64,000 nt of DNA from Rhina ancylostomus (lineage: Eukaryota), in the NCBI GenBank assembly GCA_030265395.1, contig JARFYF010000012.1, positions 30,432,507-30,496,506 on the forward strand, written 5' to 3'. The translations under genes and the position numbers were made by a program. Each line of letters opens with the position of its first letter. The first letter of the stretch is position 1. This document shows positions 20,501-23,500 of the stretch, piece by piece. Below the pieces are notes generated by a model. It did no database searches. It saw only the letters and a program-made list of their open reading frames with translations, and was not told the DNA's origin.

Positions 20501-23500
20501 GGCATTAAGATACAGATCAGCCATGATCAAACTGAGTGGCGGAACAAATGGGCTGAATAGCCCATTTCTTTTCCCCACAGACAACAGTCAGATATTATCT
20601 CCAGAATGAGTCAAACTGCCTCCCATGACATTGTGATATCACTGGAGCCCCTCATATTAGAAGTGACCATTTACCACACATTCCACTGTAGCAGCTAAAC
20701 AGATGGTGATTGGAATGGGTCAAAGTTACTGCCTTGCATCACTATCAACAACTTAGAAGTGGCAATAAATACTGTCTCAGCTAACGCCATGCACATACTG
20801 GGAAAGAAAACATATTCTCAATTCATTTGTTGGTTTCAGTTGTTGGTTTCTGATTAAATGCCATCCAATTTGCATATACTTAATGCACTACTTCTACTGG
20901 AAGACCATTAATTCCAATATCAACTCTATATTGATTCAACACAAACTCGTACTTTGCTACATTTCTAGATGAGCACATGGTGAGGCAAGGCATCAAACAT
21001 AGTGGATGCCAATAAGGCCCTATGATAATGAAATCTCCTTCAAGCACCAGATGCAGCTACATATCACTATAGCATTTTCTTCCTCCCCTTCTCTGCTCCA
21101 AACCCAATCTCAGTTAGGTTCACCTTTTTCCAACAGGGGCTGCTCAAGGTTCACTCTCCCTTCTTGTCATTGTTGTTAGCTTGGAGTCCATTCCCTCCAT
21201 CATCTCTCTTCACTGCTCTGCAAAATATGTACCTTTGCTCCACCTTTTTCAAGCCAAGATGCATTATTTCAAAAAAAATTGTACCTTACAAATAACTACA
21301 AGTTTCCTTACAATAACTACTTCATAAAAATCTATGCAAAGCAACTTTACCCGATAATATTCTAGGCCAAATGATTTTAGTATTTTCCCCTCCACATTTG
21401 TGTTTTCACTAATTTTATTTTTTCCAGTTCTCTTTTCATTGATCAGACCAACTTAATCCTGATGAGCTAGCCACTAAGCAGCAATTGTATAGGGGAAAAG
21501 GAAGCATTACATACCGTTGTTTGGCATTTTCACAACCACACATCAACTAATAAAGTAGCAGGTATTTTCTGAACTTTTATTAAATTAAGCCTCAACTCTT
21601 TAACCCACATATGCACAGATCAATAAACCTTTCAAGTATTTACAAATAGTTATATTGAGCTAAATTGTGCAACCTGCAGCAAACTGTGGCTTGTTCCAGT
21701 GAACTCCCAGCCCTGCAGCATGTGAAATTGGATAGGAAGCTTTGACTGTCAATGCTGCTGTGACTTGTCCTGGGGAAGCCTCTAATATGGGGGGGGTCAA
21801 ACAGAGTTCAGTAAACTGATGAACCAACACAATATCAGCTTTCTCAAGGTACTCCTTTCACTTATCTCAAATCCCTGCTCGTTATTAAACTGATGGCTTA
21901 CACTAAGTAAATAAAAGAACATTTTCCCCTGCCAAATGACCCAGACGAGGCATATGCAGAATTCTGCCGACAAAAACTGTTGGGTTGATTTAGACTGTTG
22001 CACTACGACAAATACGAACAGGAGTTCAAAAGTTCAGATGAACCATGAACTTTGCCATTTCACAGCAGGCTATTCCAGAAATATAGCCAAAAAGAAAAAA
22101 AAGTGGCTCAAGTCCCTCAGGAGCTGATGGAATTTTTGTGGGCTTTAGCGAAAGTATGTTTGTCAATAAAATAATTTTATATCCTACTGGGAGAGGGGCG
22201 GGAGGAGGAGAAGAAGAGGGAGGGAAACAAACTATTGTAGCTGTGGACTTGCAGGGTAAGATTTGCTTTTACCCTTGCATGGATTTCCCAATCACACACT
22301 CTAAATCTGCACAGATAAGCCGCAAAAGAAAATTCTGAGAGGTTTAGTGTTTCGGCTGCTGTGTTCCTGTTGCTGCAGCACTATTCTTCCTGGGCAGGAA
22401 ATCAGTGGAAAAATCAAAACAAATGGGTCATGACTTGCTTTATTTATTTAAGACGGAGCTGCATGTCATCCTGTGATGTGGCCTTGGCCCCAACTACGAA
22501 AAGCAGCACTAAGCATAACTGGGCTGGGAATGATAACAAACACATGTTGTATGTGCCTTTAACATTATGCACTTTCAAGGAAATTACTCATTCGGATTTT
22601 CAAAGGAATGATAACATGCACATATTTTGATGCCAAGAGAGGCAGCTACAGTAACCGAGTGGAACAAAATCCTACAAGACAAGCAGGCTAGAACCAATTT
22701 GTCAGTTAGTAGATACACTTTACCATACTTGTGCATCCCCCACACAAAAAAATAACATTTACTTAGCAAAACCCTAACAAGGCTTCAGGGAATAGAAATA
22801 GTGCAGATACAAGCTACAAGGGCTTTTTTCAATTAGATCTAAACTGGCCTTAAGTCAGAAGAGAGAATAGGCTATTCACACAACCATAAACTTGAAGGAG
22901 AGGATTATAAAAACTAAAAGACTGAGTCTGAAAGGGCACTGACAAGTTTTTTTAATCTCTTGGAAAGGAGCAAAAACTCACACCATACTTTTGGGAAGAA
23001 AATAATGGAAAACATTGCAATGTGGAAAAGATTGCAGTTAGATCCTGCTTAGGAGGAAGGAAGAGAACTCTTAGAATTGTATATTCTTTGTGCATTTATT
23101 GACATTATACCCCCTTGAGCTATTGGATGATTACATATTACATTTAAGGCTCAAATTCATACTTGTAATATTTTTACAAACAAAAACATGAGAAAACAGA
23201 TTTTTTTTAGAAGCCAAAACGTCACACCGCAAACCTATAAACACCATTCAAGGCTACCTTTGTGAAGGGGGCTCAGAAGCTGGCTCAGACAGTTAGGAAT
23301 GACCTTCACCTGACTGGGGGTGACAGAATAGCTCGTTCATCACTCGTAAATTACCATGAAATATAAACTTTGCTAACCTTTGTTTAGTAATTGGCTCCTA
23401 TGGTAGTCATACCAAGGGTAAACTTAAGTGCATTCTACATAGTGGAGTCCCTCCTCACATCAAACACAATAGATCTAACATTCCATTAAAGAAAGGAGAG

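Follow-up and report, generated by a model that had tools for sequence, protein, structure and literature searches.

The element described here lies in a 64,000-nucleotide window of the Rhina ancylostomus genome (the whole stretch analysed, whose first letter is position 1), inside a 25.8-kb intron of a minus-strand ferlin gene (6631..32474) that contains five runs of N. The intron is bounded upstream by an exon at 32475..32570 (minus strand, start approximate) and downstream by an exon at 6489..6630 (minus strand). Two exons inside the window do not discriminate between the ferlins and score slightly higher to dysferlin, so the name MYOF depends on a neighbouring exon, which scores 101.8 bits to myoferlin versus 69.6 to dysferlin, and on synteny. 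The original prediction of a MYOF intron of about 26 kb holds.

P450 exons lie directly to the left of the window. The nearer gene is CYP26A1, whose last exon is 94-95% identical to shark proteins and 88% identical to chimaera, values that mark the genome as that of an elasmobranch; the farther gene we take to be CYP26C1, from its position. The element is located 3' of CYP26A1, 45 kb from its start codon, and 86 kb from CYP26C1 exon 1, which places both genes on the side where they had been predicted. MYOF exon 2 is 141 kb away. An RBP4 exon (C12:30665646-30665779, L038) lies 211 kb to the right of the element, and three retinoid genes are therefore present at one locus. The linkage of CYP26A1 and CYP26C1 to Myof is common to lamprey, according to the available text of PMC10879103.

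Further receptor motifs are found around these genes. The CYP26A1 promoter carries a DR5 resembling R1, with a third half-site at DR3 spacing (C12:30409096-30409121, L019). A second DR5 (C12:30408005, L019) sits some 1.3 kb 5' of the start codon. Three more perfect DR5s are located in MYOF, outside the exons found (window 45854-45870; C12:30512223; C12:30533673). A further perfect DR5 was found some 5.9 kb to the left of the window, in a coding exon, and was discounted. A perfect DR2 at window 15790-15803 adjoins an N gap, in sequence with other copies nearby, and is probably repeat-derived.

The main module of the element is a conserved non-coding core at 21699..22102 (no strand assigned). 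It contains a perfect DR5, GGGTCA-n5-AGTTCA (21794..21810, plus strand), the likely orthologue of mouse RARE1, and a 29-bp block of four half-sites (22023..22051, no single strand) in which a DR2 on the plus strand and a DR1 on the minus strand are arranged head-to-head across an IR2; the three start at 22023 (DR2), 22039 (DR1) and 22031 (IR2). Lone half-sites are present at 21820..21825 and 21937..21942, both on the minus strand, and a candidate 'IR0', GGGTCA-TGACTT, lies outside the core at 22425-22436. All motifs from which the original prediction had been built (the DR5, the DR2/IR2/DR1 block, the half-sites at 21820 and 21937, and GGGTCA-TGACTT) are present in the sequence. The arrangement of RGKTCA half-sites as DR5, DR2 and DR1 is that of an RAR/RXR element.

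To assess how often such a cluster arises by chance, we generated 300 Markov simulations of the window at each of orders 1, 3 and 5, using statistics picked post hoc, with the element already known. Three perfect DR1, DR2 or DR5 sites within 260 bp were obtained in 0 of 300 simulations at each order (0/900 in total), and eight half-sites within 258 bp in 0 of 300 at every order. Four half-sites within 29 bp appeared in 0, 0 and 1 of 300, and ten half-sites within 640 bp in 3, 1 and 2 of 300, at orders 1, 3 and 5, respectively. The earlier view that the cluster is unlikely by chance thus stands, whereas the site rate on which it had been based was too low: we expect 0.49-0.68 perfect DR1, DR2 and DR5 sites per window, about twice the former estimate.

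An 801-bp stretch containing the element has a single match in the 2.2-Gb genome, and no tandem repeat overlapping the element was found, in agreement with the earlier impression that no repeat is involved. The exact four-half-site pattern also matches once in the genome (reversed-pattern control, 0). A looser version gives two matches (control, 1); the second (C52:120608288-120608318, L116), the genome's one further DR2-then-inverted-DR arrangement under this pattern, is at a level similar to chance.

Eight organisms represented in public sequencing runs carry the stretch or part of it, and six of them (B-G) were compared; no RNA run is among those listed as carrying it. In organisms D and E, substitutions amount to 2.6% in the core (21792-22065) versus 8-13% in the alignable flanks, and organism C differs at 7 of 603 positions in the core versus 70 of 1738 in the flanks (Fisher p 8e-4 to 4e-7 for core against flank). 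Organism B shows at least one change in 489 bp among the 40 of 254 table rows listed. Among those listed for organisms D-G, at least 14 positions in 21792-22065 are substituted, none of them in 21794-21926, the segment that spans the DR5. The only half-site change among those listed is 22023 A>G in organism F, which keeps the consensus and is seen in one contig at a depth of 4.5. Both lone half-sites are kept by the close relatives. In these relatives, conservation of the half-sites does not significantly exceed that of the remaining core positions (p 0.14-0.48), with p 0.04 if only the right half of the core is considered.

A more distant sequence, L107, came from a degenerate pattern scan of metagenome contigs. 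The scan returned 13 hits, 12 of which match the pattern alone and were dropped; only L107 aligns. It is 71% identical to the core over 424 bp (E 2.7e-43) and is a reciprocal best hit in the genome, where its sole matches are this element and a small block at 22410-22451. The paired half-site bases are identical at 36 of 36 positions, compared to 251 of 368 in the rest of the core (p 3e-6). In the DR5, all 12 half-site bases and the 5-base spacing are kept while four of the five spacer bases have changed. In the 29-bp block, all 29 bases are identical, spacers included. Selective conservation of the half-sites, as originally proposed, is therefore evident in L107, but it does not reach significance among the close relatives alone. 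The supernumerary motifs fared worse: the half-site at 21820 retains 4 of 6 bases in L107 and is lost, that at 21937 retains 5 of 6 with a changed core base and is likewise lost, and the second half of the 'IR0' reads TGGCTT.

Four further blocks are identical in L107. A 17-bp block at 21699..21715 (no strand assigned) contains a lone half-site (21700-21705); a 20-bp block to the left of the DR5 (21762..21781, no strand or factor assigned) includes 9 bases that match a mouse RARE1 guide; and a block to the right of the four half-sites (22056..22070, plus strand, no factor assigned) anchors the match to mouse described below. The fourth, a second small conserved block of 20 bases (22413..22432, plus strand), contains one half-site (22425-22430) with an AT-rich 5' flank, presumably a ROR/Rev-erb-like motif. 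Two 12-bp stretches with no factor assigned, at window 21731-21742 and 21881-21892, are also identical in L107. The second DR5 half-site and the next hexamer form a perfect IR1 in L107 (L107:1276-1288), with one mismatch at the corresponding window position (21805-21817).

Three features suggest a bony vertebrate as the source of L107: its low CpG ratio, how far it has diverged from the window, and a match to a mouse primer that is closer than the window's. No ferlin or CYP26 exon was found in its 3 kb. Its first 250 bases (L107:1-250) lie some 1 kb to the left of the element; they are CpG-rich (GC 0.69, 26 CpG), include a splice donor like that of an exon and do not match the C12 region. An exact pattern of 24 core bases gave nothing in the metagenome contigs, and the four-half-site patterns gave nothing in prokaryote genome or viral contigs. 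In eight microbial-looking contigs (L104-L106, L108, L109, L113-L115), a GGTTCA...TGAACC palindrome recurs between similar flanks; these copies may be extragenic palindromic repeats of one family.

Clusters of this kind can be made by repeats: a low-complexity tandem repeat in the interval between DYSF and CYP26B1 (C52:2955943-2956380, L074) has 15 perfect half-sites in 252 bp and serves as a counter-example. The 29-bp block is also an imperfect palindrome, with a folding z of -2.2 on the transcribed strand, as a hairpin of the MYOF transcript might show. In L107, however, the folding z is only -0.6, an Rfam search of the element returned 0 matches, and conservation follows the half-sites and their spacing in a sequence that is single-copy and free of tandem structure. 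We consider it exceedingly improbable that the cluster was made by chance, by a repeat or as an RNA hairpin, a reading that the conservation pattern largely refutes. Two candidate classes were rejected on the same grounds: a structured non-coding RNA (no Rfam match and no conserved stable fold) and a repeat-derived motif cluster (neither multiple genomic copies nor tandem structure).

A distal enhancer of mouse Cyp26a1 containing two response elements, RARE1 and RARE2, was described in 2026 in ES cells (mm10 chr19:37,788,057-37,792,531; PMC13738024, available text). RARa, RXRa and p300 bind both RARE1 and RARE2, the enhancer contacts the Cyp26a1 promoter in 4C, and its deletion reduces induction by RA (PMC13738024). 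An independent RAR/RXR ChIP-seq peak in F9 cells (mm9 chr19:37,863,886-37,864,386; PMC4446430, available text) falls within the enhancer interval after local-offset conversion.

We compared the oligonucleotides printed in the available text of PMC13738024 with the element. Of five RARE1 oligos, one matches strongly, two match at 8-9 bases only and two do not match. The strong match is a genotyping primer, 18 bases of which are exact in L107 and 14 in the window block at 22056..22070. The guides match over 9 bases and over 8-9 bases, one on each side of the DR5 and in the expected order. These three oligos are collinear on the same strand, with summed exact runs of 36 in L107 and 31 in the window; this score was reached by 0 of 20,000 control windows for L107 and 20 of 20,000 for the window. 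As a measure of background, an unrelated oligo matched at 17 of 20 bases by chance elsewhere in the 464-kb region. None of the six RARE2 oligos has a recognisable match in the 464 kb, although flanking oligos need not be conserved.

Because the mouse oligos match conserved blocks in order, the element is likely orthologous to the mouse distal enhancer, and we hold this assignment, made through short oligos, with high confidence. The location within the CYP26C1-CYP26A1-MYOF block agrees with it. Both elements are 3' of CYP26A1, the DR5 falls between the RARE1 guides, and the orientation is apparently the same if the printed reference is the plus strand. The two differ in their surroundings: the mouse enhancer is intergenic, with the Cyp26a1 start about 90 kb away on one side and the end of Myof 106 kb away on the other, whereas the element here is MYOF-intronic. 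The available text of PMC13738024 mentions human; it refers neither to shark or zebrafish nor to any deep conservation of this enhancer. In zebrafish, RARaa peaks are reported 25, 33 and 48 kb downstream of cyp26a1 (chr12:9.66-9.69 Mb) and are annotated as intergenic (PMC8608873, available text).

Because binding of RAR/RXR, contact with the promoter and effects of deletion have been shown for the likely mouse orthologue, most of the mechanism is already known. We consider it likely, with somewhat less confidence than the orthology, that the element is a distal RA feedback enhancer of CYP26A1. The motifs, the single copy, the CYP26A1/C1 linkage, the motif-selective conservation and the mouse-oligo match were computed here; by analogy we infer that the elasmobranch copy acts as the mouse enhancer does and that the 29-bp block forms a second receptor platform. 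RXR/RAR dimers are predicted to occupy the DR5 and probably also the DR2. In the presence of RA, p300 would be recruited to the element, which would contact the CYP26A1 promoter 45 kb away; a rise in CYP26A1 would then increase RA breakdown and clear RA. A long-range RA enhancer acting on CYP26, as originally proposed, is thus supported, in that an enhancer shown in mouse to drive the RA response of Cyp26a1 is its likely orthologue. One homozygous mouse ES clone that lacked the upstream enhancer lost induction fully (PMC8643627, available text); by itself the distal element does not suffice in these cells, which speaks against a dominant role for it.

Two known systems resemble this one. The CYP26A1 promoter elements R1, R2 and R3 (PMC10879103) and the upstream enhancer in mouse ES cells (PMC8643627) share with it RGTTCA-type DR5s and RA feedback on CYP26A1; those sites are described within about 2 kb upstream of the gene, whereas the element here is 45 kb downstream and adds the DR2/IR2/DR1 block. 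The skap1 intronic RAREs that act on the HoxB cluster (PMC8608873) likewise provide a conserved DR5-type site in the intron of a neighbour that serves an RA target. Their intronic position is reported as common to fish and mammals, in contrast to the element here, whose position is not shared with mouse.

The original prediction had left open MYOF itself as the target. The element does lie inside MYOF in this genome, the retinoid genes CYP26C1 and RBP4 are within 211 kb, and zebrafish dysf, a MYOF paralogue, is RA-induced (PMC8608873). Yet 4C and deletion in mouse implicate Cyp26a1 (PMC13738024). In F9 cells, Cyp26a1 is up by about 5.6 log2 at 6 h, but Myof shows a change only at 48 h, and zebrafish cyp26c1 falls with RA in endoderm (PMC8608873). 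A main target among MYOF, CYP26C1 and RBP4 is accordingly very unlikely. The available text of PMC11040003, PMC3769385 and PMC7259794 contains nothing on MYOF.

The role of the 29-bp block is less clear-cut than that of the DR5. It may supply activating sites or serve repressive receptors. The main role of the element, above all of this block, might be to bind other nuclear receptors and so restrict or tune CYP26A1, instead of activating the gene in response to RA. Binding preferences make COUP-TF/NR2F, TR2/TR4, HNF4, RXR homodimers and RAR of repressive polarity on a DR1 the candidates. The block has four half-sites at mixed spacings, and its spacers, unlike that of the DR5, are identical in L107. 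NR2F1/2 bind the human CYP26A1 promoter and inhibit activation by RAR/RXR (PMC13622096, available text). In mouse, deletion of the whole enhancer had milder effects on cell state than deletion of the two RAREs (PMC13738024), as expected if a brake were removed along with the whole enhancer. The guide positions suggest that the RARE1 deletion probably removed the DR5 and not the 29-bp block, which maps to the right of the right-hand RARE1 guide and was thus probably left intact. Against this reading, the half-sites are of the RGTTCA type, like those of the CYP26A1 promoter DR5; PMC13738024 gives other explanations for the milder effect; and the presence of the block in mouse is deduced from flanking oligos. 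We regard a mainly restrictive platform as possible but unlikely; such a function of the block can coexist with RAR/RXR activation through the DR5.

The element lies in a contig of 6.7 kb (19292-25977) flanked by 100-N gaps at 19192-19291 and 25978-26077, and its intronic position could therefore be an assembly error. The enhancer would then be real, and the contig would belong between CYP26A1 and the 3' end of MYOF, the mouse arrangement. Beyond these two flanking gaps, three 100-N gaps are present between CYP26A1 and the second-last MYOF exon found, and no repeats could be traced across either flanking gap, there being no collinear pairs. The mouse site is 106 kb beyond the 3' end of Myof. 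At the paralogous locus, the matching DYSF intron measures just 767 bp, and DYSF and CYP26B1 are some 400 kb apart, with about half of this distance N (a 600-kb stretch of C52 is 55% N), which resembles the mouse layout. That intron has one half-site and no direct repeat, and so shows no sign of a copy that predates the duplication.

Other features argue for the assembly as it stands. Gap-free sequence alone (6631-13302 and 26078-32474) makes the intron at least 13 kb long, and the interval between CYP26A1 and the second-last MYOF exon found is only about 9 kb; wherever the contig belongs, the region therefore differs in layout from that of mouse. MYOF also contains the three further perfect DR5s that lie outside its known exons. 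The pattern of many 100-N and 10-N runs looks like the output of linked-read assembly, where read pairs span the 100-N gaps, and this counts against misassembly. On balance the intronic position is probably real, and an assembly error is rather unlikely, if still to be taken seriously.

The proposal of an enhancer embedded in a bystander gene is accordingly upheld in part. In this assembly, a conserved element occupies a large intron (25.8 kb, against 767 bp in DYSF) next to a developmental gene. It does not stay inside the bystander across lineages, as the mouse enhancer is outside Myof, between Cyp26a1 and Myof; conversely, the elasmobranch copy does not have the intergenic position relative to MYOF that the mouse enhancer occupies. 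The element and the last MYOF exons may have changed order in one lineage, for example by tandem duplication and reciprocal loss. The joint proposal that a jawed-vertebrate-wide enhancer swapped place with the last MYOF exons between cartilaginous fishes and mammals while keeping its orientation, and that the 29-bp block, as its most conserved part, is a separate four-receptor brake or spatial restrictor of RA feedback, seems doubtful.

The element is real and likely functional. This type of enhancer, and probably this very enhancer, is already known from mouse, and since its function has been described there, the novelty is below what the original prediction assumed. What appears new is the depth of conservation, the 29-bp block seemingly outside the mouse RARE1 deletion, and the intronic rather than intergenic position. 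In the literature searched, mostly non-subscription, we found neither a description of the element from cartilaginous fish nor its motifs in print.

Feedback through CYP26A1 shapes RA gradients in the hindbrain, retina, ear and tail. Given orthology, the mouse distal enhancer would already have been present in the most recent ancestor that sharks and mammals share, and a true intronic position would make it a clear case of an enhancer that moved with respect to an adjacent gene but retained its target. The comparison marks the DR5, the 29-bp block and four unassigned conserved blocks as the bases of interest, and the 29-bp block offers a possible reason why deleting the whole mouse enhancer is milder than deleting two RAREs. 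A fine-mapped Meniere-disease variant (hg38 chr10:93,191,324) is located within the human interval examined for the enhancer (PMC13738024, available text).
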